Positions 26,014 to 59,263 are shown, counted from the first letter of the whole stretch. The stretch: DNA of 60,059 nucleotides, filler included, from Hausera hauseri (GCA_046269625.1; 11 parts of 11 records of this genome joined end to end with filler, not necessarily neighbours in it), one strand, 5' to 3'. Notes: generated by a model not told the origin, from the letters alone. A program made the numbers and translations.

Positions 26014-29000
26014 TCGGCTGACGGTAAACTCGGTCTGAGTGTCTACCTGAATGGATTGTCCTGCCTTATTAACAGAGATTCTCTGGATATTCTCGTCTAA
26101 TAACTTTATATCTGGGTTAGTGAATCGTAGCATATCGCTAGGTTTTATTCCATGATGCTTGTACCAAGCAGGTACGACGAATTGGAATTGTGGTTTTGTT
26201 TTATAGATTTTAGATACGTTCCTTAGGTACAGACGATAGGTGATGTTGNNNNNNNNNNAATCTATGTCGCAACATTGCGTATGTTCTCCTGGCTCAAAAT
26301 CAAAATTTTTTGTTTCTTTTTAAAATTTTGAAACCTACCAAAATCGTAGTATGGTTTCCTAGCCTTAAGTCCAACGCATGTGGAGTTAGGCGAGTAATAG
26401 TGAATTGTTATTGATTGTAATAATCTTACATCTCCTTGTCTTTGACTTTCTTCGACTGTTGGTTTCTTTTCCGTTTTAATAGCCTCCAGTCTTTCTTCAT
26501 TTTTCCGAATTCCGTATAAACTTTCTAGTTTAGATTTTTCACGCCCCCATTTAGCTTGTATTCTCGGAATATAAGAAGCAATTAGCGATAATGCTAAAAC
26601 TATTTGAACGTACGATATCGGTCTTGCAAGTACTGAGGAAGTTTTTTTTCGCGTTGGCGTAAATTGTAACGTTTATTGAGTCGTATCTCCGTGTTGACAA
26701 CTCTTTGTATTGACACTACTTCTTCCTTTTCATTCTTGTTGATGTACACTGTGTGCGACGTAACTCAGGTAACTTTGTACGGTCCTCTGCCGATACGAGT
26801 TAATTTTAATGAAGTGCCTTTTTTGGCTACGGGATAGTGTACATAAATCCAATTTCTTTGCTCTAAATCATTCGGTCTTGTCTTCTGCTCATATTGTTTT
26901 TTAAACTGTTCTTGATATTCTCGAGATAGTTCCTTTGCGATCTCCTAATATTTTTGTAATCGTGTCCGTAGTACTTCTGCAAAAATTTGTTCTAAATCTT
27001 CGGGGTTGTCTGTGTATGACGTTATTCGTAAATCCGTTGGTAACACTGCTTCACGTCCATACATCATGCAAAATGGTGTGAATCCTGTCGTTGGATGTGG
27101 TGTGGTATTAATTGCAAATTGGGTTCCTTATAGAAATTCATTTTAATCTTTCTGATCCTTGGCTACCACCGTGGATAATATACGTATGACGGTAGCGTTC
27201 ATTTGCTCGACCATTCCGTTACACTGAGGGTGATATGCGGTAGTGGTCAATCGTTAGATTTTGAATATCTTAGTGATCTTCTCGAATAGTTCGCTAGTGA
27301 AGTTTCTTTCCCGATCTGTGAATATCTGACCTGGAGGTTTGTATCGGCAAATAAGTTTTCTCACTACGGCTTCTGCCAAGGTTTCCGCCTTTTGATCGAT
27401 TAGCGCTATAATTTCGACAAAATGAGTTAATCTGTCAATACAAGTTAAGATATACTTATTGTTCTTGTGAATTGTAGGAAGAGGTCCTACGGTATCCATA
27501 GATATGGCCTACATAGGTCTATGGGGTACATTAATTGATTTTAATTCGGCCATGTAGTTTTTTGTCTTCTTTTTTTTAGTCGCGCTTACTTCGCAGGCAT
27601 TTATCCAGTTCTTTACATTAATATAGATACTAGGCCAAAAATATTTANNNNNNNNNNATGTGTCCGGCTAAACATGAGTCATATTCCAACGTTAGCACTT
27701 TGGTTTGTAACCTTTTGAAATAGCTATCAATTTTCTTCCTTTCCGTTCGTAATATAAAATATCCTCATTGTTGTTGTCATTTAAGACGCAATATTTATGT
27801 CTGTGTCTGTGTATATGTTTCTTTAATTGTCGTTCTTTTGGTATAATGTCTTTTTTAGCAAATTTTATAACCTGCTGAATAACTTTATCCTTTCTTTGTT
27901 TTAAGGAGATTTTGATGGCTTTATCAAGCGCTAAGGCGCATTGGCGATCTACTATTGCCTCAAGTTGGCTTTTCTTCATTACCATGATTGCGCTTGTTTC
28001 AGTCTTTAATCTCGATAGTGCATCGGCATCTACATGCATATTTCCTGACTTATACTGGAATTCGATATTGTATCTCAATATTTCTTCAATCCATCTGTAA
28101 AATCTGCATGTCGGATTATTCGCTCGTTCCTTTAAAGTCGTGACGGCTTTGTGATTAGTAACAATTATAATTTTCTGTTCGTATACGTAAACGTTGAAAT
28201 GTCGAAGTGCTTCCTTTACGTCTAGGGTTTCTACTTCGGTAGAAGAATCATTTTTCTTGGCTTTATTCAAGGAACGTCCTCCATAAGAAATCGGGTGTTC
28301 TAATTCTTTATCTTCTCTTTTCTGCGCTAATTTATGTAAAATGCTTTCTTTACTGGCATCTGTTTTGATTATAAAAAACATGTTGAAGTCTGGGTATCGT
28401 AAAACAGGTTCACTTGTTAATATCTTTTTCATTTCATCGAAAGCTTTCTGTTCGACGTCTGTCCATTTCCGTTTAATTTCTTTTTTAAGTAGCCGGTATA
28501 GAGGTCCACTAATTTTTGAATTATCCGGCACGTACTTTGCGTAATATCTGCATAGTCCTAGCCAGTGCCTTAATTCCTTCTGGTTTTGTGGTTCTATACA
28601 GTCTGATAAATTATTTAATAATGATTTATCTGGCTTTGATCCTACTTCTCTAACTATATGGCCAAGGTAGGATACGGCATTTTGAGCCAATTTCATTTCT
28701 TCGAATTTACTTTCAATCAGGTTTGTTCCAGTCTCATCAATGTATGTTTGATATCCTTTAAATGTTCTTCTTCGGTCCTTGACACTATCATTATGTCATC
28801 TAAGTATGCAAAAGCATAATCCAATCCCATTAACATTTTGTTCATCATTCTTGTAAATATGGATGGTCTGGTAGTAATACCGAACGGCATGACGTTAAAT
28901 TTATAAACACCATCGTGTGTCTTAAATGCTGTCTTATAACGATCTTCACCATCAATCTCCACTTGCCAATATCCGCATTGTAAATTCAGAGTGGTAAACC

Positions 29001-30883: not shown

Positions 30884-33800
30884 TCTCATAAAGGAAGGAA
30901 GAAAGGTAATAAGAAAATAATTGACGTAGAGATTGGATCAAGAGAAACGTCAACAGAGAGGGACGAGGTAGTGAAAGGAAAGAAAAGAGGAAGAAAGAAG
31001 AGTACCTTAGTACACCCTCATTGGACGAAGATGAACCTGAAGCTACACCAATATTTGATGAAGTTATATCAGATCAAGTAGTAAGGAACCCAGGTGTAGA
31101 CTTAGACGAGGAGGAGGATATCAATCAGGCAGTATTGGCTGTAGACCCCGGTAATATAATTAATGTGGATAAAACGACTACTACGATATTGAAGATAATT
31201 ACCAGTAACGTAACGATAGAAGGAATAAACGAAATCTTACCTCAATTGGTATTATTAGACCAAGATGCCAGTCCTGTCAGAGAAATAGCCAGGACAGTAT
31301 TGGTTAAGCCGTAGAAGATGAGAAAGGCAAAAATGAAGCTATACGAATAACGGTAAGAGAAGGAAACCAGGACATGAGGGTCATCAGGATGAATGAAATT
31401 GATGACGTACAAACTTTAAGACAAAAGATTGAGGAGTTGGAGCCTTTTTATCAAGGGATTCCTTATGGATTACATTATTATGGAAGAACACTATATAATT
31501 ACGATAAGTTATTGAGAATTGGATATAGAAGTGAGAACTACAATCCAATAACGATAACCGAAATACATCTAGAGGCAAGAACACAGGCAACAGTGGAGAA
31601 TATCCTAAGGGAAATTAAACCACAGGAAGTACGAAATGCCATGGGTGATACACATGATGTCACAGTTCATACGGAAGCCAAGAGAAGAGGTAGGCCGAAA
31701 GGGACAAAAATAAGTGACATTTGTAACAGAAAAGATAGGAACGAAGAAATAGTAAGACGTTTGTTATTAGCAGGAACAAATGGCAGTCCTGAATCGGTGG
31801 ATATAGATCCATTACTAAGAACGTTATTGGCTAAGCTGCATACGTCATTTGCCTCATTTGACATGCAGGCAATAATCCCAGACGAACTGTTCACAACGTT
31901 ACGTAATAATATGCTACGAATAAGTAGGCAATTCTATGAGAATTTAAATGAAGAACGGATAAATGAACTGCATGAGCTGGATAGTTTGGAAAAAATATTT
32001 CCAACTGGAATTACGCGAGAGAAAGCTCAAACGGCTATATCTTATCTACTATACAAAATAATAGTAATTAATCATAAGACACAAAATTTAGAAGAGATTG
32101 AGCGGAATATAAGGACAGCAGTAAAGATTTTGAAAGATACGTTAGGAAACTGGGCTCAATGTAGAGGCGGATGGCTAACCAGCCTGCCGACTAATATAAT
32201 AAGGCCAGTAGAACGAGAAAGATTGACAGATACGCCAACTGCGACACAACCAAACACTTCTAGACCAGGCATAACAGGTATGTAAATACTAGAGATTTTT
32301 CAAGTTCTCCTAATAACATCATAACAGGATGCTCATACATAATAAAAGGATGCTCATGGAAAATCATAATAGCTATAATACCCTCAGTAGCAAGTTGTTT
32401 TCTAGCAAACCACGATGCACGATGGAAAAGGAAAAGATTACAAAGGAAGGATGTAAAAGAATCTCCGTATAGTGTACCTGATGATGACGATACAGAATAT
32501 AGTCAAGTAAAAGCAAAGAAACGAGAAGCTGCAATCAAACAACTAATGCTGAAGACACGGAAGCTAATAACGGACTTACCCCGTCTAGATCATGTGGATG
32601 GATATCATGGACAGTTATATAATGAACAACCATTAATAAATCCTTCAGCTCCCCGATACGTAGTACAAACAGGACTATATCCTATACATCAAGTGCAACA
32701 GATGAAACAAAATTCTGATGAAACACGAATCTACGTATACAGTTGACGATAAAAACGAACGACAGCCACCTATAATACCAGAAGTAGAAATAGAAGTGAA
32801 TGGATATCCAATGACGGCTCTACTAGACACTGGATCCACAACAACAATAATGGGAAGAATCCAATTGCCAAAGCAGTTAAAAAGAAAACCACGTATACCA
32901 ACAACTACCTTGGTAAATGTAGGCGTATTCGGCACAGAGGAAGAAATCAAGTTGGTCTTAGATTCCGAAATCAAGATCGGTGAACAAATTTTGAAACATA
33001 CTATAAGAATAGCAGATAATCTGACTAAAGAAATTTTAATTGGGTGCGATATACTAAACCAATTGGAAAATGTTCATATAGATGTGAAAACTTGACAACT
33101 CAAGACGTTCAATGAAGATCGTAACGAGGGAATGGTTTCGCTAGCAAGAGACATCACGATTCCACCACGATGCGAGATAGTGGTGCCTGGAAAAATAGAA
33201 AGTCGTGTCGTACCAGAGATTATATATTTTGAACCGTCCCCACAGGTTATGGAAAAATATGAAGTTCTAATTGCCCCTCACGTGGATAAAGTAAGAGATG
33301 GAAAGATCCACTTACGAATCTGTAATACAACAAAGAAAAACGATTACGGAAGGGTACTAGACTGGGAAAAATAACGATCACTTAAGAAATAATAAAAGAA
33401 GAAATCTGCTCAATAATATCAGATGTAGATAAAATAGAAAAGATAATGACCGCCAAAGTGAAAACCAGACGAAGATAAAAGAAGAAATAAAACCACGAAC
33501 ATCGATTGGAACGAGAGGTTACAAAAATGCGAAATTATAAGTAAGAAAGAGAAGGAAATGTAATTGAATTGTTGGAAAAGAATAATAGTCGATTTGCACA
33601 AACTGATAATGATTTAGGCACAAAGAAAATAATACAGCATAACATTAAGTTAAAGGACGGACACGACAAGCCAATTAAGAAAAGAGCATACCGATTAGCA
33701 TACAATAAAAACAGGAAGAACGTAAGATAATAAAAGAAATGAGGGAAAATAAGATAATTCGACCGAGTTGCTCCCCATGGACAACGCCAGTGGTAATGGT

Positions 33801-35793: not shown

Positions 35794-38700
35794 AACAAAG
35801 TAATTCGTAAAATCGGCAGTATGATTCGGGCAAATTTAATTGTAATGTAGGGTGGAAATTCGGTACATTTATAAGGTTTCTCTTGAATAGTGACTGACGA
35901 GGCTCTATACGTTTGTCCCAAAGTAGTATTGGCATATAGTTTGATCGAAGTGGGCGCATTATTCGCTATCCTGATCGGTACACGCCCTGTTGACACCTTC
36001 GTTAAAATATTACTGAGTACGATGTTTGGATTAAGCGATTCCTTTGGCTCAAAATATACTGGCTGATCGTCATCTTGACGTATCTGAGCATATATTAATA
36101 TTTCGATTCTGAGATGTATGTTTTCATCCACGGGAATTCACACCTCTCCGAAATTTCTGTCTTTAGTGGTTTTAACTCCTTTTATTAAGTTAAGTTCTAT
36201 CAATTTCCATGCATTGAAATCTATCGCTATGTTGGGTAGTTGTCTCAATAGGTCGCACCCTAATACTACATCATCCGCTAATTGTTCCATTATTGAGAAT
36301 TCGTGATGAAAAGATTGTCCCATTATATGAATTTCTGGTCTCCATCGGAATGTGCTTTTAGACGATTGACCGAAAGCTCATACACTTCCTGGGTCTGTTG
36401 TGGGAGGTGAATATAATTGTTTCCGTAGGAATTGCGGTATTGAATCATACTTTATCAGTAATATTTCGGATTCTATATTTAACAGTGCGTAAACTTCCCA
36501 ATCTTCCAATTGAATTTTTCGAAGGGCCTACCTTCAATTACCGTACCGTAATAACTTAGTGCTATTTGGGAGTATCGTATCGTGGACACCTTGTAGCGGT
36601 TGACGGTAACTTCTGTGGCTCCAACTGTCTGATCGATTAATTGTCTTAACTCTCCAATTGGGTATAGTTCGTTATTCAGACCATTCGCGTTTTCTAATTT
36701 CTGTTTTTCAACTGGCGGCTGGATTTTTTGGTTTTTGAAATGGTGTGTTTCGCGGCCTCCAGTAAATGTTGAATGCCTTTCGTTTGTTCTAGGTATTCTA
36801 GGTGAATAAATTATACCGTGATCGTCGACTGCTGATTGACAATGCGGGGCAGACGTTTTTCTGTTTTGTGGATCTTACGCAATATCCCGTAGTGTTTTGT
36901 TCCTTCGTAAGGATCCTCTAGACTAAACGGCTTCCGATAGACCCCTGTCTGGCACGAACTCATAGATTGTTACTCACAGTCTTTATATATAGGTGCCGTT
37001 GGCGGCAGTATTGATAATGGTAATTTCATAACAGAGTAGTTTTTGTGCCTATTCGTTTTGGAGACAACGTCTCCTCCATTAGACTCGTCATCGTCAGAGT
37101 TATTTCTTCTTGTCTTACTATCTATTACGTTTTGCCTGTAATCGAATATGCGTCTTTTACGTTTTCGATTATAGTAGCCAACGTGTCGTTTCACATCCGT
37201 TTTCTATCTAATCTCTTCATAAGCATTTAAGAATTTACCGAGAGGTGTTATAATAGCTGTTAGAATCTTACACAAGAATCCTGTCAAAGTGAATATCCCG
37301 TATTCATTTATAATCGCTTGAATTATTGCTTTGATCAGTTGAATCAAGAAATAAATTGCTAGGAATCCTGACGCGGCTTGTCCAATTATCAGGAATCTTC
37401 CAATATTTTATACAATATTCCCGTAGTTACTTTTCGGTAGAAGTTAACACCGAGCAAAGATTCCAATTTCGCTTGATGTCGCGAGTCCTCTAGTATTGTA
37501 TGCTTCGCTTTGTTTAATTTATGTCTGCGTTGACGGAGAAAAGCGAGGAATTATCTGAACGCCTCCACGTCTTTCGGTCGATAAATGCCCTTTGCGGCTG
37601 TATCTTGAAATTTATCATCGGTTATTACTTTTATTAAGTTTGTTTCTGTTAGCTTGGTCGGTGGCGTAATTATGCCGCCGTTTGGAAAACTTACCCAGCG
37701 ACGTCTGAACATTGGTTCTCCCAGGTTGGTCTTGCAGTCTCTCAGAATTGTCGGTTAAGTAGAGTTTGCCAACAGTACTCTAGTAATTGTTGTTACTAGT
37801 CTTGGTACGTCTTGGTATATTACTGGAAGTTCCTGTATACACCTCTTCTCTTCCACATTAATAGGTACATCTTTTTGATATTCATAGGTCAGTAGGACTT
37901 CTCCGGTTACCCGTCCGAAAACGCCTTCTTCGGAATTATTGGTGACGCTAATTCGGGGTTAGCATATATTAAAGCCAGTTTAGTCCTCATGACTATCAAG
38001 TCCAATTTGCAGTCATTTGTTATCATTTTGTGATATAACTCGGCTATTCGAGCTTGTACTTTATAGTAGAAATAGTCGTCTCTATTTTTCAAATAATCCT
38101 CAATTCGAATATCTTGAGTCTCGAGCTTAAACGTCCTGGCGTTTATCTTCGTCTCAGCTACACAGAATGCTTCACAATTGGTGGCGTACATTATGACATC
38201 GCATCTTGTGATTACATCTTCACAAATTTTAATCCATAAGTATCAGAAATCAGTATAGTAGGTGTGGACTGTTCGGCTACATTTCGTGTTAGAGTTGTTT
38301 CCGTGCTACTTATGTATTGTTTCCCTGTAGTCTCATTAAATTTAAGTTCTTTAATTCTGATAAAATTGCAATCGGTCTTGGCTGGGGGTTCCCAAATTAC
38401 CACGGAGCTTCTAAAAGAGCAAGTACTGTCCTGAATGTGGCACTTCTGGTTTTCCGTGTAAAGTTTAGTAACGCTATGGAACATTACTTTTTGTAGGCGC
38501 ATCTCGGTTTTGTAAAAATCCACCACTACGATGTTCGACTCCAGCCCTTTTCCAGTATCGTATTCTGCGCCATTACAATGTCCGGTGTGCATATCTAGTT
38601 TTCCAGCTGCCACTTTATATACTCTGATTATCTTTCTTTGTTGCATTTCTAATTCCATGCCATCCCATTTTAATCTTCCAGTCTCTCTAGCTTGCTTACA

Positions 38701-40625
38701 ATGCTGGCTTTCTAAGTTCATCGGAATTGGTGGGGTTGTTGGCTTGATTATCGATGAATGCCCATGTACCAGTCCACAATGGAAAATACTACGGGATCGT
38801 TGCAACTTACATTTTATTCCGTCTAATGTAACTAGTTCGTGCTGTTGATACAGCACTTAATTTTTCTCTTTTGTTTTTAGTTTATGTGGTCTCGCATCTT
38901 CACACATTTCTATGTCCATTAATGAGTATTTTTGGCCAAGTTTAAATTTGTCGCAGTCGTACACTGTAACTGCACCCATTTGTCTTATTAACATCATCAC
39001 GATTAAGAAGTTAATTAACCAGTTTGGCTCGTTTCCTCTATTATTTCCAGCTACGTTTCGTAACAAGTCTTCAAATCTATTATTGCCAAGGAAGGGTTTA
39101 TTTTGATGTTCGTCTTTTTCAAATAATTTGGACCAATTTACTTCTCGGGACAGTTTCCTGACAGCCTTCCTTGCCAAGCTAGTGGTCTTATTAAATTCGT
39201 TTTTTCGGACCGGATTGGTTTTAACGGCCAAATATAGCAACGCTTTTCTTAACTCCTCCACGGTGTTCTCTACTATAATTTTCTCGATTACCGCTTCATC
39301 GCTTAAGGTGCTTCTGGATAATTTACACCGAAAATTTTTCATGGCCTTGGCTGCATTAAATATAGTCTTCTCTTTTTCGTCTAGTATATCACCACCGAGA
39401 CTAGAGTGATTTTTTCATGAGTTCATTCAGTTCTTCGTCATCTGCACTGAGGGTCGGTACGGACATTTGTCTCAATTTTCTGATTAAGTCCCTATTATAA
39501 TCGATTTCTTTTCGTGTCTTTCGCGGCCTACCGACAGGACGCTTCTGTTTCGTTACAGTCGGTTCGGTATCACTGGTTGGTACTAGATACTTATCATATT
39601 GTTCCTTGTCTTCGTCTGTTTGCAAGTATTTGAGGTACATTGCTGCATCTCGAACTCATACAATTCATCCTACCCACTGTTCAGTCTTTGCTTTCCTTGT
39701 GGCCTCTTGTTTCGTCAGTGGGAATCGTTACTACTATCCGGTTTGCATCGTCTGGAATAATTCCGACTTCTATTAGTAGTTCCAGTTTGTCTAATATTTT
39801 TCCTCTAAAATAAAGTCTACAGATCAGCTCATTTGTATGGCCATTGCTCCTTAACCACAGTGCTACATCCTTTACAAGATAACGTGTAGTAAACTCGTGC
39901 TCATTCTCGTCCATCCAGTCGGGCGTTATTCTTACTTTAATCGTCTCTTTGGGCCTTGTCTTTAAGATTTTAGCATATTATTTGATTAAAAGTTTAGGTG
40001 CAGCACTATAAATCGTACCTTCGCTGGCTAATTTAGTTAGGGTGGGAACTAACTGCCTTAATTGATTTTCAGTAAGGTTTACATTGATTAACTTAATCAG
40101 ATCATTTTCAGTTTGTGCTGAATCCAGAAGCATCTTCACGCTGAATTTCTGATCTGGTGGACACGCCTCCGTTTTGTACAAGTGCACCGGAGTTTTCGGG
40201 TTTTTGGCGAATATTGCATTCAGATACGCGTCCCATTCGTTTTCTTTTTCGGGTAGTCCGAAATCAATCTCCGGAGTTTCTAACGGTCGGACTAAGTTCG
40301 CATCCTTTATTGATTCTTTTAGTTCCCTTAGTTTTTGTTGCATTATAACCATTTGCGTGGTTTGGAAACAACGTCATTTTCCGGAAGTTTGGCGTAATAT
40401 TGTTAGCAGCTGACATAATTCTTCAGCTGATATAAATCCTTGTTCTTGATAATTAGTTAGCTCAGATGCTACGTCTCTTTGCCATCTTTGCACAAATTGT
40501 GACTTGTCAGCCTTTTCTGCTTCTGTAAGAGCATACTTAGTTTTATAAATTTCGAGTTCTTTAGTTAGTTCGTCTAATCTTACCGCTCTCTGTTTGGTTT
40601 TAATGCAAGTTTCTTCAACTTGTCG
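35794..40625 (-). mobile_element. Family B copy 2: coiled-coil/Ubl/AT-hook region - chuvirus-like glycoprotein - PR (decayed)
   Basis: RLYFRGKIL Ubl-like motif; VGRPRK; signal peptide and glycoprotein; EGRP..WEVYALLN protease start and VVLGCDLL. Homologous to contigs 5 and 8. Confidence 0.88.
37230..39022 (-). pseudogene. Chuvirus-like envelope glycoprotein, family B
   Basis: WLINFLIVMMLIRQMGA / VTVYDC...YSLMDIEMC; IFHCG; CNGAEY; NDCKL; GEVLLTY; CIQELPV; TRVL; IGQAASGFLAIYFLIQLIKAIIQAII membrane region. Confidence 0.85.
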
Positions 40626-40725: not shown

Positions 40726-43700
40726 GGGATAGGTTAAAATAGCCAACTGTACAATAAAATGATAAATAACGACTGTAAATTAAATATGGAAATTATGAGG
40801 ACAAAATTAGCCCTTATTTATGCGAATCCTAAGTTAGCCTCACCTATCATTCCCATGAGAGAAGAAAATTTTGGTCGAGTCACTGGTGAAGTAGTACTAA
40901 CATATGAATGCGAGAAAAGAGACGTACCAATTAATGTCGAGGAAAACGATGCATACAAGAACTTCCTGCGATCTATCAGAATACTCGGCGCTTAGCTATG
41001 CCTCTCACCAGAGTGTTGCTCGATAATGCGACACAACCAACCATTATAAAAGATTGTAAAGCAAGTTTGGGCGAACCAATGTTTAGGCGTAGCGAAACAG
41101 GTTGGATTAGCTTACCCAATGGAGGTGTCACTATTATTCCTAAAAAACTAAATGGGACTAATTTAGCAAAAGGAATTACCGACGACAAGCTCCAGGATAC
41201 ATCTCAAAACGGCATTTACAGACCAAAAGAGATCGAAGCTTTTCGACAATTTCGTGATTTTCCACGACAGCGAACACACAAATTAAACCGAGCTATGTCA
41301 TCAGTAGTAGACGATACCCGCCACCGGGCTAAATGGGAATACTTGCTTGACGCGAACCATTACTAGCGAGTAACCACAGAAATACTCTATAAAATATGGG
41401 GAGGATTTTTAATTTTTGAACAAGCTGCATCTGGATTCTCAGCAATCTATTTCATGGTACATCTGGTAAAGGCGGTAATCCAAGCGGTTATAAATGGGTA
41501 TGAAATATTCACGCTAACAGGATTTTATTGCAAGATCTTAACCGCGATTATCACACCGTTTGGCAAAATGCTAAAAGCATACGAAGAAAATCGATGGAAA
41601 AATGACGTTGAACGCCATGTCGGCTACTATAATTACAAACGTCGAGCAAGACCCATACTTTGACTGAAACGTATGGTTAAAAAACCAATGACTCGAACAA
41701 ATAACTCCAATGATGACGAGCCTAAGGGAGGAGATGCGATCCTCAGACAAAATAGACACAAAATTTATTCAGTAATTAGAGCACCTTTACCCATCATGCC
41801 GCCAAAGGCTCCAATATACGAGGATTGTGACAAAACATCTATGATGTCATATAGATCAGCATTCTGTTAGAAACCCTTCAGCTATGAAGATCCTTATGAA
41901 GGAACAAAACAATATGGAGTCTTAAAGAAGATGCAAATCACTAACCAACGACGAGCGGAAGACGACCATGGGATATTGTACTCACCGAGGATAGCTCGAA
42001 ATATAGAAACAAGATCAACAGTATGGTGAACGCAAGGAGTAAACTCGTTCTAAAAGCCAATAGTACAAGAACTATTAATTAGAAACAATACGAATAACAT
42101 GGCAGTTAACGACTTATACCCTAACGAAGAACTGAAACAGCTGACCGAAAATATTATTTCATTACCAGAGATAACGATAAACGAACATAAAATTTCCTCG
42201 ATTAAACGACCAAAAGACGTGTCAAGTTGTGATGGGTCAGTCATTGAAGGAAGACCCTTTACAAAAGTTATTATAGAAGATTGGGAAGTCTAAGGTTTAA
42301 TAGACACCGGATCAGAGAAGTCGTTTATCAAATTAGAATCGATACCGCCGACACTCCGAAAGCAACTGCAGCCGGCATCATCATCAGACCCAGGCAGCAT
42401 GGGAGCCTTCTGGCAAGAATCCAAACCAAAATTTAAATGGAGTCCTTTAGTCCAATTAATGGGCCAAATTCTACTACATGAGTTTGCCATAATGGATCAA
42501 TTAACCGATGATGAAGTGCTAGGTTGTGACATACTGAAACAATTACCCAATATCGCAATAAACTTACAGATTGGAAAGCTACTAGAACTTGGACCAGTGA
42601 AAGGAATTAAAACAATGAAAGAAAGGAAGCAAGGAGAAGTATGGATCCCCGTCGACGAAAATATTCCGCCTAAAACCGAAATGCTAATTTATGCTCAAAT
42701 CCGCGAAGAGGACGATTAACCAGTATATTTTGAGCCACAAGAAGACGTTAATCCAAATATTATACTCAGTAACATTTTGACAAGAGCAGCGAGAGGAAGA
42801 GTACCAGTCAGATTAGTGAATAACGCACCAACTCCTGTAAAATTATATGCCAATACTACTTTGGGTCATACTTATAAGGTATCAGCAATAACGATCGAAG
42901 AAAAGCCGTACAAATATGCCGAGTTTCCACCTCATGTTGAAACTAAATTTTCGGCAAAAGCATATTGTCAGTTTTACGAACTACTATGCAAATATAAGTC
43001 AATTATTGCCCAAAATAAAGAAGGCATAGATAGAGCGAAAACCTTAAGATTAACCATTCCATTAAAAAAGAAATCTGGATTTAATGACAAAATTGATTTG
43101 GAAGAGCAAAAAATGTCAAAATGGTACCCACCGCCTCATTTATTAAGGCCCGAAATAACTAAAGAAGTGGAACGCATGTTAAAGGCCGACATAATACGAT
43201 CAAGCTACCGATCTTGGTACTCACCAATACTTATGGTCAAGAAAAAGTGTACCACAAAACATCGATTCTGTATAGATTACCGAGTCTTAAATACATTGAT
43301 GATGAAGGACTCATTTCCACTACCATCAGTAAAGGAAGCTCTAGACAGATTATCAGGAGCAAAATAGTTTACCACACTGGATTTACAATCCGGATATTGG
43401 CAAGTAGAAATTGAAGAAGATGATCGTTATAAGACAGCATTTAAAACGCACGATGGAGTTTATGAATTTAACGTCATGCCGTCTGGTATAACAACCGGCC
43501 CAACTATTTTTACTAGAATGATGAGCAAGATGCTAATGGGACTAGCTCATGCGTTTGCGTATTTAGACGATGTAATGATAGCGTCCAGAACAGAAGAAGA
43601 ACACCTAAAGGACATCAAGGATACTCTTATGCGATTGGAACAGGCAGGATTGAAACTAAACCCAAAGAAATGCAAATGGACACAAAATGCTTTGTCTTAT

Positions 43701-46290
43701 CTCGGACATATAGTCAAAGAAGGAGGATCGAAGCTAGACAAATACTTATTAAACAAAATATCAGATTGTATGGAACCCAAAAATCAGGAAGAATTAAGAC
43801 ATTGGTTAGGCTTATCGGATATTATGCCACCTACGTATCAGACAATTCGAAAATAAATGCGCCGTTATATCGGCTATTGAAAAAAGGCATCAAATGGAAA
43901 TGGACCGATGTAGAACAGAAGGCGTTCGACGAAATGAAGAAAATTTTAACAATTGAATCAGTGTTAAGATACCCGGATTTCAATTTACCATTTATAATTA
44001 AAACAGACGCAAGTAAAGAATTATCTCAAAAATTGAATACGAAGAATTTGAGCATCCAGTTGCATACGGAGGACGATAGCTTAAGAAAGCTGAGACAAAC
44101 TATTCAGTCACTGAATTAGAGACACTAGTCGTAAAAAAAGCATTGAGACATTTAATGTCGATGTCTACGGACAGAAAATTACTATAGTTACCGATCATAA
44201 AGCTGTCACGACGTTAGAAGGACGGGCCAATAACCCACAATGCAGATTAAATTGGTGGATTGAGGAATTTTCGCGATACAATATTGAATTTCAATATAAA
44301 CCCGGAAGCAAACACATCGACGCAGACGCTCTATCAAGACTTAAAACAAAGACAAGCGCAATTACAGCCATGAAATAAATCAAGCTCGAAGAATTGGTCG
44401 AGCGACAGCAGACCCTGACACTAAATAAAACGATCAGAATTTCTGCAGAACAAGCTAAAAATAAAGTCATCCAACAGATAGTTAAATTTGTAGAGCAAGA
44501 CGAGATAACAAAAGGACGTCAACTAAAGAAACACTTACAGAGACACGGACACAAATATTATGCATCAAATTCGGATAATATTGTATATTACGAATGAAAG
44601 GGATGGAAATTGGTAGTTATTCCAAAAGGATTACGAACGAAAGTGTTAATGGCCGAACACGATTCACATTTAGTCAAACATGTCATGAAAGAAAAAATTA
44701 GAAAGGATATTGAATAAGTACTATTGGCCAAGTGTTTATATCGACGTGGAAAATTGGGTGGACGCTTGTGAAGTCTGCGCAACAAAACAAAGAAAATTGA
44801 AAAACTATATAGCAGAATTAAAACCTATCGACGTACCAGATAGATCTATGCAAGATATGTCTATGGATATAGTATGACCTTTACTTACAACTCATTAAAA
44901 TAACAAATATATTTTGACATGCGTAGATTGTTTAACGCACTTTGTGGAATTAATCGCATTAATTGATCAGAAAGCGGAAACATTAGCAGACGCAGTAGTA
45001 AGGAAAATCATCTGCAGATACAGACCGCCAGATCAAATATTGACCGATAGAGGAAGAAACTTTACAGCGAACTATTTGACAAAATTTCTAAAATCTTCCA
45101 AATCGAACGTATAAATACAACAGTTATACGTGTCTTATCAACCGTAGTAGCGAAGGATCAAAAAGACTGGGATGAATTTTTAGAAGGAACACAATTCGCT
45201 ATCAATACTACCCCACACCCCGCCACAGGATTTACACCATTTTTATGATGTATGGACGCAAAGCGATTTTACCTACGGACTTAAGAATGACTCCGTATCA
45301 CGCAAATCCAGAAGATTTAGAGCCAAACTTCGCAGAAGTCCTACAAATGAGACTACAAAAATGATGGGATATAGCTAAGACGCTTACTCTCGAGTATCAA
45401 GAACATTTTAAGAAAAAATATGATAAGAAGGCCAAACCTCATGATCTAGAAAAAGGAAACTGGGATTACGTATACTATCCAGTTGCAAAGAAAGGTACAT
45501 CATTAAAACTCACTCGCACTGGATGAGGTCCCTACAAAGTTATTCGAACCACACCAACTACGGTGTACATTAAGAAAAATGGCAAAGAAGAGGTAGTATC
45601 TATTCAGAGAGTTGTTAAAACAGAAATAAAACCCGAAAGACGTTACAATTTGCGATCTAGCTCGCAGCAAGATAGAAAGAAAACAAAAACATCCTCCATA
45701 ATCAATAGACCAATATCGTACATTCAAATAGTGTTAGCACTCTCGCTAATTGCCTCCTATATCCCGAAAACACAAGCTAACTGGTGGTACGACAGTAGAA
45801 CGAGATTGAATGTTGCTAAAACAGAAAAGAATTCAACAGTCGAAGTAAATCAAAGACAAAAAGATGTAAGATTATTACAAGCAATAAGGATCCACTATTA
45901 TTCGCCTAACTCCACATGCATTAGATTAAAAACACGAAAACCACTCCGAAATTCTGGAAGGATCCAAGTTATCTTAGATGATGTAATAACAAAGAAAACA
46001 AAGAACTGTGACTTTGAGTCCGGAGAACGTACGCAATGTTGCGACATAGATTTCGAACATACTTATAATCTGACCTATCTAATGTACCTACCAAAATTAT
46101 CTAAAATTTACGAAATAAAACCACAATTCCAACTAGTTATTCCTGTTTGGAATAGGCATCATGGAGTAAAACTGAACGAAATGTTGCGATCCACTGACCC
46201 AGACATAAGACTGCTAAACGAAAATATCCAGAAAATCTCTGTGAATAAGAAAAGACAATGTATTCAAGTAAATACTCGGACGGAACTAAC
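40726..46290 (+). mobile_element. Family B copy 3: glycoprotein C-half - PR - RT - RNase H - IN - post-IN domain
   Basis: NDCKL, GEVVLTYEC and QAASGF..IY (glycoprotein); LIDTGS; FCIDYRVLN, DLQSGYWQV and AYLDD; IKTDAS; CEVC; LTDRGRNF; GPYKV; RRYNLRS; then a hydrophobic segment. Confidence 0.92.
45700..46290 (+). CDS. Signal-peptide-led, Cys-containing domain fused after integrase (unknown function, truncated by contig end)
   Basis: In frame with the integrase GPY motif. ISYIQIVLALSLIASYIPKTQA / NWW...; NxS/T sequons; conserved in contig 5 (26014-26625, minus strand). Confidence 0.65.
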
Positions 46291-50494: not shown

Positions 50495-53400
50495 AAATTG
50501 TCAAGCATTATTAAAAAGAAGAGGAAATTTCCCGGCAATAAAAACACCATTAAAACCGGTACCAGTTTTAGCATCACCGTTTGTCTGTATAGGCGTTGAC
50601 GTACTTGGACCACTACCCACCACTGCTAGAGGAAACACATGCGTACTTACAGCAATAGATTACCATTCAAAATTTTCAATAGCGATGCCAATGATAAACC
50701 AAACTACAGATTTTATTGCCAGGAGATTAGTCGACGACGTAATATTTGAATACGGAGTACCAATGACAATGGTATCCGATAGAGGAAGCAATTTTTGCAG
50801 CGAACTTATGGAAAAAGTGCTAGCGATACTAGGAGTTAGCCATAAATTTACCTCACCTTATCATCCCCAAGCCAATGGAGCAGTGGATGCGTTTAACAAA
50901 CAATTTTCGATTATGATATATAGTTACGCATATGACCACCCAGCTGATTGGGATCTGTATATAAAACCTTGTGCATATGCTTATCGACAGAGTCCCCATA
51001 CGACAACTGGAGAATCGCCATTCTTTTTTATATGGTAGACGAGATATTATGCCAATCGATTTAGAATATAGACCACCACAGTCACAACTGATGGAAGAAC
51101 CGGATGATGCAACAATTCTACAAGAAGGATTACAAGAAGCACGGATCAGGGCCGGATTAAAAATTAAATATCACCAAGGAAATTACAAGGATCAATATGA
51201 CAAAAAGGCAAAACCTCATGTATATTGAATTGGAGACTTAGTTAATATATTAGATGAGACCTGTAAACTAGGCGAAAGCCCAAAATTGAAATTACCATAT
51301 AAAGGACCATACAAGATACTAAAAATAACCGAATCAAGTGTAGAACTATAGAATTTGTCCAATCCTGATAAAACCTCTTGGATGAGTGTGCAACGATGCA
51401 GACCAGTAGCCAAGGAGCGTAAATTAGAACAAACTTCACCTTGCAGATACCCATTAAGGAATAGAATGCAGTTGGAAGATAAGAATGAAACGATGACATT
51501 TATATATGATGGATCAAACAACACAGTAATCACAACTATAACTATAAATAAAGTTAAAATAGAATCATTAATAGATGTAGGAGCAGAAAAAACTATTTAA
51601 ACAAGGCTACGATGGAAACTTTAAAACTGAAATTGATCGAAAGCAGCGAGATAAACCACAAGTTAATAAATGGAAACCAGTTAAAAGTAATAGGTATGGT
51701 TACAGCCCTAACTAAATTAAGAAATAAACGATCAAAGATCCTGTATCATATACTAGAAAATACCACAATTCCCTGTATCATAGGTCGAGATACGCTAATA
51801 GATTATGATATAGTGATAGACGTAGCTATGAATTCGCTAGAAAAAACGAAAGATTTGGAGAAATATCGAAAAAACGTGAGCGAATTGGAAGATGAAATAA
51901 AAAGGTTAGGATTATTATATAATATGCATCATCGTCAGAACTATGACGATTATCCTTTATTAATACCAATATTAGTCAAAGTATACGGTAAGTATGTTAA
52001 ATCGGAACTCGATACCACTACTCCGTTGACCCGCATAAACTTACGACTATATAGACGAATTACACATTATATACCCGAGGCGTGTGGAAAATTGGATTTG
52101 ACTATAGGATATATTGACGTTACTTGTTACGCCAACCCACAAGAGTCGTATTCTGATTTTATTATTGGTTTAGATGTACTATACAAACTGACAGGAACAG
52201 AACTAAAAGTTATTGGAAGATTAATTGTATTTTACAGCAATGGTTATCAAGATACAAAACCTCAACCTAACGATCAATGGTGGTTCCCGCCAGGGGAAGA
52301 GACCGTTTCACCCTCATTAAATCAAGTTACATTAAAGCAAACGATCGAAAAAAATACAGAATTTACACGAGCTGGGAAAATAAGGCAAACTCGAATAATA
52401 GAAACATCTTCATCCATTATTCCTGCAATGATTTTCGGAAACCCCTTTAATTTGTCTACCATAACTTTAATAACCTTAATACTACTCATAATATTTGGAT
52501 GCGCGAACACCCAACCAACCTCAACAACTACCATGACTAACTACAGGAGTAGTGCAGTTATACTATTGTTGATATTTGTGTATTATATGTTTCAAAGTAG
52601 TATGACAAGTGACGAAGAAGAAGCAGATAATCTCTCTTCGAATGACTATGCAAGAAGACAAGTACTCTTACCCTCAGTAGCTACTATAGACACCTATTCA
52701 GTATCTATCATAACGAATGTTCCGAAGAAGCCACCACGAAATTCCTTACGAGACTTTTCAAGACCTATATCAACAACTTCTATTTATCCCGACTTAACAG
52801 GAGTACAAACAACAAATGAATTCCAAACACCTGCAAGTTACACCATTATAAATAAGAAATTGGAAGAAGCAGAAGAAAATATTAAACTCCAAAAGGAGAA
52901 AATTAAAAGATACCAGCCTGACGAAACCAAGAAACCACCAATAAATTATAAAATTAGAACAATGAGATAAGATTCACTGAGAAAGTGCAACGTAAAGATG
53001 TCAAACCAATTGAGCAAAATTATGCAGAACTACCCTAACAGAAAGGGAAAAGTCTACCACCACTCCCTTTAACGAGAGGCTGCAAACCGACATCGATTGA
53101 AGAATTTCCTATTAGCCACCCTAGAACGTATTAATCGCGCACAACAACTAGTTAAGGGACCCATAAACAGTGTAACGGAATTAAGGGACCTTCTTGATAA
53201 ATATCACGAAAAGTGTGGGATAAAAGATGAACAATATAGGCCCATAATGCAAATAATTTGCGAAGATCTAAAATTGGATTCCAGTATACTGACTCCACTA
53301 GATACACTTCTGATAAAGATAAGTTGTGAAGAGGTATATTACACAATTACCGACTTGAACAGTCCAGAAAAATCCAAACATCATGACTATGTAGCCCCCA

Positions 53401-54577
53401 GCCGAACATTAAAAATCTAAAAACATCATAATCTAAATATAAGAGGCCGAGAACTCATTAATGGAATAGAAGTAAAACGAGCTTGGAACCAAAGAATGGG
53501 ACAACCTCTCGATATCAACCTCCCTCCAAAACAATGGATGAAAATCGATCAACTACAGTTTGCAAGAAACAGTATTAAATATTTTGATGAAACTGCAAAC
53601 GAGACAAGCGCCATGCATATTCAAGACGTTCAAAAAAAGATAAAAAGCGAGAATCCTCAGGAATACAGGGCTATTCTACGTTCTCATTGGGAACGTTACT
53701 CTTTATGGGAATATGTTTCCTATCTATGATCAATATAGTAAGTGCAGCTGAGACAACATTTCAACATCCGAGTCCCACGTGGACCTCAACAATACTATGG
53801 ATACTCTTTTTGCTAATGATAGGCAAATTCTTTAGTGATGACGATGATGAGTCTAACGGATATAGTAGAATAATAAGTACCCCTAACCCTATCTGAAACA
53901 ATTATTTCAATAAAGAAAAATCTAAAATACCCAATGACGTAAATAGTACAACAAACAAACTGCACGCAAATAATGTAGAAACACAATCGGAATATTCCTA
54001 CAGTAACCAGTCAACGGAAGAACGTTCAGATTGTCGAGAATTGGTGCAGATCCCAAAATAAGTCAGAAAAACACAATTCTCGAACTCTCCAATCGACAAG
54101 CCGTTATTTCAAAAGCAATATTATGAACAAGTACAATCTGATGATGATTCTTCCAATTTAATACACGTTGTGAAAGAATATCAAAAGGAAAAAGTATTTC
54201 ACCACTGTTCCTCTCATATGGAGAAGAGAGTCCCATACCCAAACCAATTGAAAGGTTGGAAAACAATCAATTTTTAAAATGACCTCCATCCAAAGAAACG
54301 GAAATATTACTGCCCTAAAGGAATATTCCAGGAAAATTATATCAATACCGACGAATGGAAGAAATTACATAAGCCGATACAGGAAGCTATGGAATAATTA
54401 AACAAAAATGGAATTGTATGGGAACAATATAAAACTAAAAGGGTAATTGCACCAGATATAATAGAAGCGATACAGGAAGATCTTACCTTGACACCGATGA
54501 CAACAACGTCCGAGACTCACACAATACTACTCACCATTACAAGTGTATTAAACCCAGTAATGGGATATAGTTATACA
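50495..54577 (+). mobile_element. Retroelement-like segment: Gypsy-type integrase followed by two retropepsin-like domains and membrane modules
   Basis: GVDVLGPLP, VSDRGSNF, SPYHPQANG and KGPYKI (integrase); SLIDVGA...IIGRDTL; ELDTTT...IIGLDVL; several hydrophobic segments. Confidence 0.75.
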
Positions 54578-55539: not shown

Positions 55540-58500
55540 TTCCCGCAACACTCTCAAAATCTGCAAAGCTTATGTCTTTAGCTAATGTGGCCCTTTGAAC
55601 TTCTTTGTCTTGTTTATTTACCTGACCACTTACATCGATGGCGTACATTTTTTATCTCAACACCACGAAACGCGTGATGATCTTCCCATTCACATTGTCT
55701 TTAAACTTCCCGAAGACCTTCTTGTTGGCGGTTGGATAATTTGAATGATCCTTCGGATAGTCCGAGGTATCCATATATTGCGCCAATTTTGCGTACTTCT
55801 CAAAGACATAATCTGTGCGGATCTGGTATATGAAACTATCCGTGTCCATGTACATTAGCTTGAGCTCTTTGAATGTTGGGACCATGGTGTAATGAAAGTT
55901 ATACATCAAGGTCTTGGATAGATCCAATGTGGACATGCCCATATATATAGGTTTGTTGAACTCAAGTGATGTCTTGAGCATATGGATGCTCACCAGGTTC
56001 TCCGTGTAGATTGTGCTGCTGTGGAAGTTGGGCTTAGCGATGAGTTTCTTTGCCCTATTCCAGTCATATAGCAGCTCGATGTTTATTTGGTTCCGGATGT
56101 TCTCCATAGTTTTGTCAAAGGCCGAGTTGTTATACAGCTTGAATTAGTCCTTTTCAAACTCATTTTTGGCATTGGCCCTCAACTGGGTATTGAGGTCTAT
56201 GTATGGATTCAGCCATTTGGACTGGCTGAACTGCAGGACCCGATGAATCCTGATGACTTGGAGTCCATTTTGGATGGCCTGTTGGAGATTTATGTAGTGG
56301 GCTACATACCTCTCCCTGTTTTTGAGGTAACAGAACAGCTTCTTATGCTTACCATTTGGCGGCCTCTTGCTCTCCGGGAGAAAAGGCAGCTCATGCCTTG
56401 TGTGGATGCTATGTGGGTATTTCACAACCACCTCCAGTATGTAGCCCGTATCTCCATTGGGATCCAGGACTTGCGGCTGCTCCACCCATTGAAAGTTATC
56501 ATAGTGCAATGGGTTGCTCATTGCCCATCCATACAGAATGTTGGCATCCAGGTATGATATATATGAGGATTCTTTGGATGGATCATAATCTGCCATGTAT
56601 TTGTTGTTGTCCTCACTGTACCTGTGAATGACCCGGCATATTCCGCTCCTGATGCCTCTCTCAATCATGAGGACCATATTGTAATCCTTCAAGATCTGGA
56701 GCTTTATGCCGGTATAGCGCAGCATATGTGCCCAACTCATTTCTGGAGCTGTAAAGAAATAGGCTGGATCTAACTTGTGGCTCTTAAGGGTCACATCCCG
56801 GAAGCTTTCGAAGACATCAATATGCAACAGGACATCTGTAAGGACATAGATATCACTGTATTCCCCTATTGTCCTGCAACGGAAGTTCTGCCACACTCTT
56901 TAGGTATGCTCATAATCAGCATCGCTAATATGACTGTATGACAACTGACTATAGAAGTCCTCCTTGGCCAGTAATGCATCTTCATTTAGTGCTTTCCATG
57001 ACGTTATATAGTCATAGGGGAACACTCCTTTCCGCTTCACCAGATCAAATGTATTCAGGAAGAACCTCTTCGTCTCCTTGAGCTCATCAGCTGGAAGGTT
57101 TTTCACGATGCTGTCCAGTGACGAGCTTATGAAGCGGAAGCTATCAATGAAGCAAAGTCTGATGCGGCCCACATGCTTCGTGAAGGTGATGTACTTCTCA
57201 CTATTTGGAATCACATCAATGTTCCCCTCAATATTACCCAATTCTTGAACAATGAAGTGGGAATCGTATCGACTAAGATTGTGGAATACCACGGGAGCAT
57301 ATGTACATGTCTTGCAGTGTAAGTTGCAATTGTTGCACGCTGCACCTCGGTATATGCCTGTAAAATGGCAGTGATCCCTGACTCTCCCATGTGAATGGCT
57401 TTCTGCATAACTAGAATGTTGATGCTTTGTGCCATTCACATTTTTCTTCCTGCGACATCACCATGTAGCCCTTATGCTGCTGCAACATGTTTTCAAGTTT
57501 GTGGGTATACTGTTCCAGACGCTGCATAAAATGTGTTGCTGCATTTAGACTCCTGCATAATTAGCGTTCTTTGTCCAGTCCTTTGCATACATGCAGTATT
57601 ATGATAACCTATGGTACTGGTATTCTGTAGTACTGCTTTGCTGTGAATTGGGGCTGCAGTTGTGAACTGGACTGAGAATGGCCTCAAAGTCACAATATAT
57701 GACAATCGGCACCTTCTGCATCTTCTCGAACTCCTTGAATTCCAGGTAATCCTCCTTGGTGAATTATGCTCGGATGCAATTCTTTCTATTGCAGTAGGTC
57801 TTGTGCTCCTCTAGCTTTTCTGCGGCTGTCTCCATTAAAATGGGTAAAGCATCTTTTGCATATTTCTAGCCTTGATTTATGCTTGGATATTTGGGATCCT
57901 ACGAGGCGCTAAAAATTCTTGATCCAGTTTAAATGCCTCGTTTTTCCATCATCTAGCAGGAGCAGATCCCTATGATCCTCCAATTCCTCCTTGCACACAT
58001 GTAAGGGAAAAATTTGTTCTCCTCCAATTCGAAGATGTTGATGGAGATATTGGTCACTCTTTTAAATTTCACGACTTCATCTAGGCTTGGCGGGAATGAA
58101 ATACAGCTGAAGTCGTATGTGTACTGCACTTTGTCATATATCCAAACTCGGGAAACATTATGTTGATCTTGGACTAGTTTTGACAAAATAGAATACATGA
58201 AACACATTGTCCTCATTATGAACATTGATGCATGTCTTTTTCTTAACTATTCATTCAGGAAGCGGTATGTAGGAGCTGCTTCCCATGGGAGAATACTTGT
58301 GCACATGGACAAGTAACCCCTTTATTGTTGCTAAAGTCCAACCGCTCTTCTTGTCCTGGCTTTCCTCGGCTTCGCGGATGAGCGTTGCATAATCCTCTGT
58401 AATGAAATCCTTAATGTTAGAGGATTTCAATAGTGGTCTGTTCTTTACCTTAAGGCTCTACTAAACAGCTCTCCTTTGACATTAGTGAAGGTGGCTTCCA

Positions 58501-58621: not shown

Positions 58622-59263
58622 TCACCGCACTTTGCTCTTCAGTACAGCTACATCAACTGGCCGCTGTCTTTGGCTTTTTGATGGATCATCTGTTGCTACT
58701 TCTGATATGCGTTTTAGTCCTGCATCGGGCCTTGCTGCTAAAGCAGGCAGTACAACTGGCTGTGCTGCCAAAGCAGGCTGCTGCTCATTAAATATGACCT
58801 TCTTTGACTTTGATGTGAAGTCAGTCAAATGATGTTTGTGATCTTCATAAAACTGTATGTATTCTCCATCACACACAGCCTCATATCCTGGGCAGATATA
58901 ATAGATGATCCTATTGAATTTGTGTCCATAATAGCTCCTCATGATATTGTGGTAATTTTGAGGTTTGTGTATTGCACATGTGCAATGCTCGTGTGAACTG
59001 CATCTTTGATTTTCCTTTGGCACGAAAGTCGTTATTGCAATATTGGTACTTAATATTTGTTCTTTCGACTTGGTGAAGGAAATCAAGTGTTGTTTATGAA
59101 CATTGTAAAAGTCTTCGTAATTGGATTGGCACACTGCCTCACATGTTGGACATATATAATAATGAACCCTGTTGTACATATTGCTAAAATACTTCTTCAT
59201 AATATTGTGGCAATTTTCAGGCTCATGGATTTGAGCCCAGCATTCTCTGTAGAGTTTGCACAT
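58622..59263 (-). CDS. Tandem Cys/His-repeat protein, probably the N-terminus of the PolB ORF
   Basis: Two repeats of about 70 aa (IH.P.N.HNIM..Y....NR..YYICP..EAVC...Y..FY..HK.HL..FT.). TTTTAG directly precedes the ATG. Confidence 0.6.
   Translation of the reverse strand: MCKLYRECWAQIHEPENCHNIMKKYFSNMYNRVHYYICPTCEAVCQSNYEDFYNVHKQHLISFTKSKEQILSTNIAITTFVPKENQRCSSHEHCTCAIHKPQNYHNIMRSYYGHKFNRIIYYICPGYEAVCDGEYIQFYEDHKHHLTDFTSKSKKVIFNEQQPALAAQPVVLPALAARPDAGLKRISEVATDDPSKSQRQRPVDVAVLKSKVR

Follow-up and report, generated by a model that had tools for sequence, protein, structure and literature searches.

A predicted membrane glycoprotein gene, ORF4, behind the integrase of a decayed Ty3/gypsy element of Hausera hauseri

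The window analysed here is a stretch of 60,059 nucleotides (nt) from Hausera hauseri (GCA_046269625.1), in which 11 contigs are joined by N-spacers. One of them, contig 8, represents a decayed Ty3/gypsy element in which a gB-type env precedes pol, and behind its integrase lies a further open reading frame (ORF), ORF4 (45707-46290), which is led by a predicted signal peptide and cut by the contig end. ORF4 is coding and under purifying selection. The best explanation of the locus as a whole, to which we give a probability of about 0.5, is that ORF4 is a type I membrane glycoprotein module of a GAG-ENV-POL element. As such it would be the fourth coding module of an errantivirus-like Ty3/gypsy element, and its product would consist of a cleaved signal peptide, a helical spacer, two disulphide-bonded fibronectin type III (FN3)-like repeats and a Thr/Ser stalk; a third FN3-like domain would follow, and after it a single transmembrane helix and a short tail that bears a Tyr-based motif of the sorting type.

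A conserved coding region behind the integrase

The initial annotation had described a frame that stays open beyond the usual end of Gypsy Pol into at least 170 amino acids with Cys residues and sequons, and this description holds: the frame from 45527 to 46290 is open for 254 codons up to the contig end, with 170 amino acids following the residues TQA, and contains five Cys and three sequons (N102, N128 and N181). An open stretch of this length has a probability of 0.12 at the stop rate of contig 8 (7/829) and is therefore no sign of special preservation. A homologue of ORF4 is present in contig 5 (tblastn, 2e-64), and no further piece was found by tblastn in the other nine contigs, those of a second element family (family A) ending inside the integrase. 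The ratio of nonsynonymous to synonymous change (dN/dS) between the copies in contigs 5 and 8, for which a value near 1 had been named as speaking against the annotated domain, is 0.325 (0.205-0.491 in 400 bootstraps; 182 codon pairs), well below 1. Stops are absent from all 182 codon pairs in the ORF4 frame, whereas in every one of the five alternative frames 13-20 pairs contain one. In the integrase tail the ratio is 0.09, so that the ORF4 protein evolves faster than the integrase (0.33 vs 0.09). Since post-insertion decay in both copies inflates dN/dS, selection while the elements were active would have been stronger than the measured ratios indicate.

The only full-length relative is a protein of 479 amino acids, P0001, the single match of a phmmer search among 1.84 billion representatives (E 7.6e-19) and a singleton on a 4939-nt contig. 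Between the signal peptide and the contig end, P0001 and ORF4 of contig 8 share 36% identity in an alignment of 207 columns, and the similarity starts at the signal peptide, with none upstream. In P0001 a Met lies just ahead of the conserved signal-peptide block, which sits 10 residues from the N-terminus. Downstream come two repeats with a Cys pattern, then a stretch rich in Thr and Ser, a third beta domain, and finally a transmembrane segment and a tail. Near the C-terminus the protein shows a single strong hydrophobic segment (windows starting at 424-437); it has four sequons, and its tail ends in a Tyr-x-x-hydrophobic motif, which we take to belong to the Tyr-based sorting class. Used as a query in a word-index search of 5.8 billion clusters, P0001 recovered only itself among 3340 candidates; a word-index search for homologues confirmed 0 of 32 candidates, and of 54 pattern matches in GTDB genomes none was confirmed.

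Topology, repeats and predicted fold

An N-terminal signal peptide is predicted for ORF4. Its hydrophobic core is marginal when taken alone (66/1000 shuffles), and the call is made because the segment is nearly identical in the three sequences, has small residues at the -3/-1 site, lies at the N-terminus of P0001 and is accompanied there by a C-terminal membrane helix. The marginal core and the in-frame position behind the integrase in contig 8 would also suit a cytoplasmic integrase extension, such as a chromodomain- or SH3-like targeting domain, in which the hydrophobic stretch would be incidental; chromodomains C-terminal to the integrase are described for some errantiviruses (PMC13524379). 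Such an extension, an option that the initial annotation had itself raised, is hardly credible: the integrase tail and ORF4 match no Pfam family at E ≤ 1, ORF4 is out of frame in contig 5, and P0001 has an N-terminal signal, a C-terminal transmembrane segment and paired Cys. The membrane anchor that was to be sought further 3' was found as a single C-terminal helix, followed by a tail, in P0001 only; both window copies end before that part. The type I topology of ORF4, taken from P0001 for this reason, is very probable.

The initial annotation had also quoted a repeat about 110 amino acids apart. As quoted, this pair is weak, with a score of 33 that is reached by 49 of 500 shuffles, and the repeat was not recovered from contig 5 alone. 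Once P0001 is added the repeat is recovered, repeats 1 and 2 of P0001 matching each other with a score of 83 (0/300 shuffles) and repeat 1 of contig 8 matching repeat 2 of P0001 with a score of 71 (0/1000 shuffles). The period is about 113-115 amino acids, and each repeat has four Cys in a C...C...CC pattern. The third domain of P0001 matches repeat 2 weakly (16/500 shuffles). Two of the five Cys of contig 8 are absent in contig 5, and of its three sequons two are kept in contig 5 and none is at the same place in P0001.

A model of P0001, obtained with AlphaFold2 (AF2) on a two-row alignment, has a predicted local distance difference test (pLDDT) score of 42 and contains three strand clusters in addition to a signal helix, a long helix and a helix at the C-terminus. 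When this model was compared with 48,161 chains by VIA-align, an FN3 module came first (Z 7.6, root-mean-square deviation 2.3, 81 aligned), and the further rows were mostly FN3 or cytokine-receptor chains. Chains of the same kinds dominate the Foldseek list, none of them at E ≤ 0.001. Leads for P0001 in the ESM Atlas are FN3 membrane proteins at 0.85-0.87, all below 0.9, and include FNDC5, IL11RA and a cytomegalovirus (CMV) US glycoprotein; the contig 8 piece had no usable match there. The one BFVD match at E ≤ 0.001, an uncharacterised protein with a TM score of 0.12, was rejected as not meaningful. Among sequence profiles, the best matches of ORF4 and P0001 were CATSPERE_NTD1 in Pfam (E 0.059, not significant), one at E 0.059 in PHROGs and one at E 0.012 in NCBIfam, far below the cut-off, and PDB sequences gave 0 matches at E ≤ 10. 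On these models a tandem beta-sandwich is likely for ORF4, and an FN3-like fold is reasonably probable.

Several observations weigh against the glycoprotein explanation and its structural parts. The family comprises only three sequences, and any link of P0001 to a retroelement is putative, its start being a gene-caller prediction. The control frames have dN/dS values of 0.50-1.34, two of the five also being below 1. No row of the VIA-align comparison reaches Z 8, and a Bacteroides immunoglobulin (Ig)-like DUF3244 domain lies within 1 Z unit; Foldseek against the PDB gave no match at E ≤ 0.001. The single-sequence AF2 model of contig 8 is unusable (pLDDT 35) and matches generic jelly-roll and carbohydrate-binding module (CBM) sandwiches, not FN3 (best Z 5.7). 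Additionally, an fn3 profile match is absent in Pfam at E ≤ 1 for both P0001 and the contig 8 ORF, and the third domain of P0001 does not match repeat 1 (345/500 shuffles).

Expression, exchange and possible role

Directly after the RYNL motif, contig 8 has 19 nt more than contig 5. In contig 5, Pol has its own stop 17 codons past this motif and ORF4 lies in the -1 frame, the 19-nt indel placing it in a frame other than that of Pol; many other indels between contigs 5 and 8 also shift the frame, and the contig 5 ORF4 is itself damaged (Table 1). The conservation in contig 5 claimed by the initial annotation thus stands for the homologue and not for its fusion to the integrase, which is probably copy-specific, being found in one of the two window copies and absent in P0001. 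As far as the sequences indicate, it is slightly favoured that ORF4 would be made separately from Pol and that the in-frame join in contig 8 would be a by-product of the junction indel. The points for a separate product are the Pol stop of contig 5, the Met of P0001 and the start of similarity at the signal peptide. On the other hand, reading back from the signal peptide to the first upstream stop, neither window copy has an in-frame Met, and the env tail and the protease share one frame in all three copies checked (contigs 2, 5 and 8), which favours polyprotein read-through; both facts count against separate synthesis.

In the polyprotein case, the native product would be Gag-Env-Pro-RT-RH-IN-ORF4 (reverse transcriptase, RT; RNase H, RH; integrase, IN), and the endoplasmic reticulum (ER) would be entered twice via internal signal peptides, contig 8 keeping the native join and contig 5 carrying the lesion. 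This would concern expression only and leave the protein the same. The env signal peptides of contigs 2 and 7 lie inside long open frames, the 19 junction codons are free of stops in the ORF4 frame of both copies, with an internal stop in the +1 frame of contig 8, and the Atlas virus serves as a precedent (PMC9094657). Against a polyprotein, P0001 is free-standing, its Met immediately preceding the conserved block and residues resembling integrase being absent upstream; frame-shifting indels are frequent between copies; and a search for relatives combining an integrase tail with ORF4 at 610-2000 amino acids, a weak test, found none among 1569 candidates. The Pol of contig 5 ends in a P-x-Y-L-x-D tail that presumably resembles usual Gypsy Pol ends, which also counts against a polyprotein, and we regard native read-through as possible and doubtful.

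A third mode, -1 ribosomal frameshifting at the end of Pol, would yield a minor Pol-ORF4 product from which the glycoprotein is freed by signal peptidase. In contig 5, where ORF4 is in the -1 frame, the Pol frame contains a run of eight A shortly before the signal peptide, and runs of at least 7 A number only two in the 4770 nt of this contig. Nevertheless, such a heptamer is absent at the contig 8 junction, none of six folds gave a stable downstream structure (z +0.37 to -0.67), and P0001 has its own Met, so that frameshifting is improbable.

Silent divergence between contigs 5 and 8 is roughly halved from about the signal peptide onward. In exact frames, synonymous differences number 31/118 in ORF4 vs 49/92 in the integrase tail (p 1e-4), and the best change point over 293 codons separates 96/177 differences before it from 30/116 after it, a step reached in 0 of 1000 permutations (position and support in Table 1). 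At fourfold sites, 9/38 differ in ORF4 vs 140/237 in pol (p 7.5e-5), a pol count that can be inflated because frames were picked per tile as the best, which tells against the step. The GC content at third codon positions is 0.32 on both sides of the change point. This pattern is most simply read as an exchange of ORF4 between subfamilies whose pol genes had already diverged, with a crossover near the junction indel, and movement by template-switch recombination at the end of pol is probable. The alternative is synonymous constraint over 580 nt; all six folds of the junction lack a stable RNA structure, and Rfam gave 0 matches in the window.

As to function, the combination of a type I protein, tandem sandwiches and no enzyme motif suggests a binding protein. 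Separate binding proteins stand alongside the fusogen in herpes- and paramyxoviruses, and herpesvirus gB depends on partner proteins for binding and triggering. The placing of secretory-pathway proteins on both sides of Pol by the initial annotation is supported within contig 8, where the C-terminal half of env and ORF4 flank it. Given a gB-type fusogen in the same element, attachment would be the most economical role, and by analogy we tentatively propose, at somewhat under even odds, that ORF4 may be displayed on particles or producer cells and supply adhesion or attachment for the fusogen.

A decoy or interference role comes close behind as a candidate and would fit nearly as well. On the producer cell, ORF4 would in that case mimic a host receptor, and its action would be that of an immune decoy, a receptor down-regulator or a factor for superinfection exclusion. 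The FN3- and cytokine-receptor-like fold matches, FNDC5, IL11RA and the CMV US glycoprotein among the Atlas leads, the Tyr-based motif of the P0001 tail, and the faster protein evolution together with apparent module exchange all agree with such a mimic. Every fold lead is nevertheless below confidence thresholds, no receptor sequence similarity was detected in the PDB search, and rapid evolution and swapping would equally fit an attachment protein; a mimic is a doubtful, if possible, identity. It is still far less probable that ORF4 is a passenger, a fragment of a host gene that was transduced into the 3' region and does nothing for the element. Type I proteins with FN3 architecture are typically cellular, a recent capture could explain the lower silent divergence, and P0001 could be the host gene, but there is purifying selection between element copies, ORF4 holds the same position in both of two subfamilies with pol genes close to saturation at silent sites, and no cellular orthologue family appears in the 1.84 billion representatives or the 5.8 billion clusters.

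Element setting and related systems

In contig 8 the domain order is RVP, RVT_1, RT_RNaseH_2 and rve, that is, protease (PR), RT, RNase H and IN, as in Ty3/gypsy elements (Metaviridae). The gB/class III-type env family PF24664 is above its cut-off in contigs 2, 7 and 8, and in contig 8 the C-terminal half of env precedes the protease, which places env upstream of pol. Contigs 5 (26014-30783, -), 7 (35794-40625, -) and 8 (40726-46290, +) are homologous, with about 65-69% DNA identity, and form family B, contigs 2 and 6 being the second family, A. All copies are decayed, and neither a long terminal repeat nor a primer-binding site was seen in them; the main frame of contig 8 has 7 stops in 829 codons, or about 4.6% neutral change per site. 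The ORF starts at 41367, 41664, 42054, 42294 and 42720 of contig 8 lie in one common frame. Its integrase tail carries GPY and RYNLR motifs. In the spacer of ORF4, a motif common to contig 5 and P0001 is absent from contig 8. No gag family was found with Pfam in the ORFs upstream of env in contigs 2, 6 and 7.

Table 1. Positions of ORF4, its surroundings and its homologues, counted from the first letter of the window
Feature	Position	Strand	Evidence or remark
gB-type (class III) env, C-terminal half, with hydrophobic anchor segments, decayed (contig 8)	40935..41660	+	PF24664 E 9.9e-25; two hydrophobic windows
Linker in the env tail and protease reading frame, in-frame stops from decay	41664..42290	+	ORF starts (see text)
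Retroviral-type aspartic protease	42240..42716	+	PF00077 E 1.1e-6
Reverse transcriptase and RNase H, interrupted by stops and frameshifts	43368..44116	+	PF00078 E 1e-29; PF17919 E 1.7e-10
Integrase zinc-finger region and core	44580..45063	+	PF17921 E 0.015 (below cut-off); PF00665 E 2.3e-9
Integrase C-terminal tail	45245..45656	+	Translation; dN/dS 0.09 vs contig 5 over 45290-45652
Pol/ORF4 junction, with 19-nt indel vs contig 5, near the silent-divergence change point	45657..45706	+	Change point 45713, support 45605-45773
Predicted ORF4 signal peptide, no Met at its start in contig 8	45707..45778	+	Near-identical in contig 5 and P0001; hydropathy; helix 16-28 in P0001 model
N-terminal spacer, lacking 12 codons relative to contig 5	45779..45862	+	36-nt in-frame indel
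Repeat 1, predicted beta-sandwich, FN3-like (low confidence), C...C...CC pattern	45863..46111	+	Repeat comparison; models
Start of repeat 2, cut by contig end, period 113 amino acids	46202..46290	+	Repeat comparison
ORF4 homologue of contig 5, 16-nt frameshifting indel and 10-N gap, cut by contig end	26014..26624	-	tblastn; alignment
Pol C-terminus of contig 5, ending at a separate stop; overlaps the ORF4 signal peptide, which is in a different frame	26600..26764	-	Translation
A8 run in the Pol frame of contig 5, just before the signal peptide, slippery-heptamer pattern	26642..26649	-	Absent at contig 8 junction
Env signal peptide (internal, in open frame), then gB-type N-terminal half, third family B copy (contig 7)	38212..39414	-	PF24664 E 1.5e-12

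Several side observations concern these families. The ORFs upstream of env lie at 39401-40625 (-), 10723-12112 (-) and 30884-32285 (+); that of contig 7 carries a GRPRK motif, presumably AT-hook-like, and that of contig 6 has similar basic motifs. The family A copies (contig 2, 5949-12112; contig 6, 30884-35693) are 85% identical, and contig 6 lacks about 1.7 kb corresponding to most of env, by which comparison it is an env-deleted derivative of family A. The family A env signal peptide (10723-11643, -) has a Q-I-L-L...P-K ending that by eye is reminiscent of the ORF4 signal peptide. Once aligned, contigs 8 (end 46290) and 5 (end 26014) stop no more than 10 nt apart within repeat 2, which may reflect a break in the assembly where a segment has a higher copy number.

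Other parts of the window hold further elements and ORFs. In contig 10, at 50495-54577 (+), a Gypsy-like element has an integrase tail that continues past a GPYK..RYPLR end into retropepsin-like motifs, whose similarity to the family A protease is weak (43/500 shuffles). The same element has two signal/transmembrane hairpins, each followed by an acidic run, in ORFs 51558-52967 and 53591-53893 (mutual similarity 18/500), and its region gave no convincing Pfam match. Pieces of a protein-primed type B DNA polymerase (PF03175) at 55652-57457 (-), with an internal repeat at about 58800-59221, are probably a decayed Polinton/Maverick. The ORFs 16608-17093 (+) and 15393-15701 (-) have signal-peptide-like starts, the first being Gly/Leu-rich and without a Pfam match, and are probably host secreted genes; a Tc1/mariner-like transposase fragment was recognised by eye at 14143-14529 (-).

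Errantiviruses of GAG-ENV-POL order with an env of the gB type of herpes simplex virus (HSV) have been described in Nematoda, Bryozoa and Platyhelminthes (PMC13524379). They resemble contig 8 in the PR-RT-RH-IN order and in the class III gB-type env upstream of pol; they are described with three ORFs, whereas the contig 8 element has ORF4 in addition and the copies here are decayed. The terms 'fibronectin', 'accessory', 'polyprotein' and 'extra ORF' have 0 occurrences in its main text. For the flipped order of env and pol, that paper cites nematode non-canonical endogenous retroviruses (ERVs), in which env, like that of contig 8, comes before pol. The env-before-pol order has thus already been published, and the extra ORF4 gene is apparently undescribed in the literature searched. 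Sacco et al. 2022 reportedly found one continuous gag-env-pro-pol ORF in the nematode non-canonical ERVs, as the frames here suggest, and the extra ORFs there are said to be a small hypothetical protein or an Upf1-like helicase, not an FN3-like membrane protein. Among the openly accessible literature matches listed there is no report of a second glycoprotein or attachment gene, or of FN3, in gypsy-type elements; subscription papers, Repbase annotations and bioRxiv supplements could hold one.

The Atlas belpaovirus, with its Gag-Pol-GN-GC organization, resembles contig 8 in that secretory glycoproteins follow the integrase in one ORF and that separate attachment-like (GN) and fusion (GC) proteins are present (PMC9094657). 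It differs in being a BEL/Pao element with a class II fusogen and with both glycoproteins downstream of pol and derived from phleboviruses; in contig 8, unlike Atlas, the two secretory proteins flank pol and are unrelated to each other. Other Gypsy elements have variable accessory ORFs, some of them membrane-bound or downstream of pol and subject to modular exchange, as reported for bdelloid ORF3 (env, transmembrane, GDSL and DEDDy types; PMC5408684) and for the MDG1-group sORF2/FAST-like proteins of some lepidopteran elements (PMC11952523). These either replace env or are short (63-230 amino acids) transmembrane proteins or enzymes, whereas ORF4 has about 480 amino acids (per P0001), is multi-domain and is additional to the fusogen. 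Outside retroelements, fibronectin modules, cytokine receptors and FNDC5 share with ORF4 a predicted arrangement of tandem beta-sandwiches on a type I anchor, although there is no sequence match to FN3 surface proteins, ORF4 has its own C...C...CC pattern, and the fold call is of low confidence.

The 3' region of published elements was surveyed in supplement 1 of PMC13524379, its section 15 being read as placing the Pol stop 3000 nt short of the listed region's end. In the rows with long terminal repeat (LTR) coordinates, the distance from this inferred Pol stop to the 3' LTR is at least 1 kb in 17 of 23 GAG-ENV-POL elements, with a median of 1314 nt and at least 1440 nt in 9 of the 23, whereas 0 of 12 env-last elements of Odonata and Blattodea reach 1 kb (median 364 nt). 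Rows without such coordinates (32/55 GAG-ENV-POL, 4/16 control) drop out of the count, and mollusc rows were excluded as their 5' LTRs mostly end well past 3000, suggesting another anchoring. Some mollusc rows, taken by hand, also give a gap of about 2 kb, so that the contrast is only a lead.

A lineage of Ty3/gypsy errantiviruses may have evolved a two-component entry machine, an idea that we offer with considerable doubt: the gB-type fusogen would be encoded ahead of pol and, behind the integrase, an attachment protein that is unrelated to it, host-like and built of FN3 repeats, both possibly cut from a single polyprotein with two entries into the ER. Like a tropism cassette, the attachment module would pass from one subfamily to another at the pol end, and the 1-2 kb left unannotated behind pol in many published GAG-ENV-POL elements may serve generally as a slot for genes of this kind. 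On the question of how a gB-type errantivirus Env finds its target cell, ORF4 offers a concrete candidate partner that is under selection and apparently exchangeable. Moreover, a second surface protein may be what allows env to lie upstream of pol, and ORF4 may help the element to grip or evade host cells.

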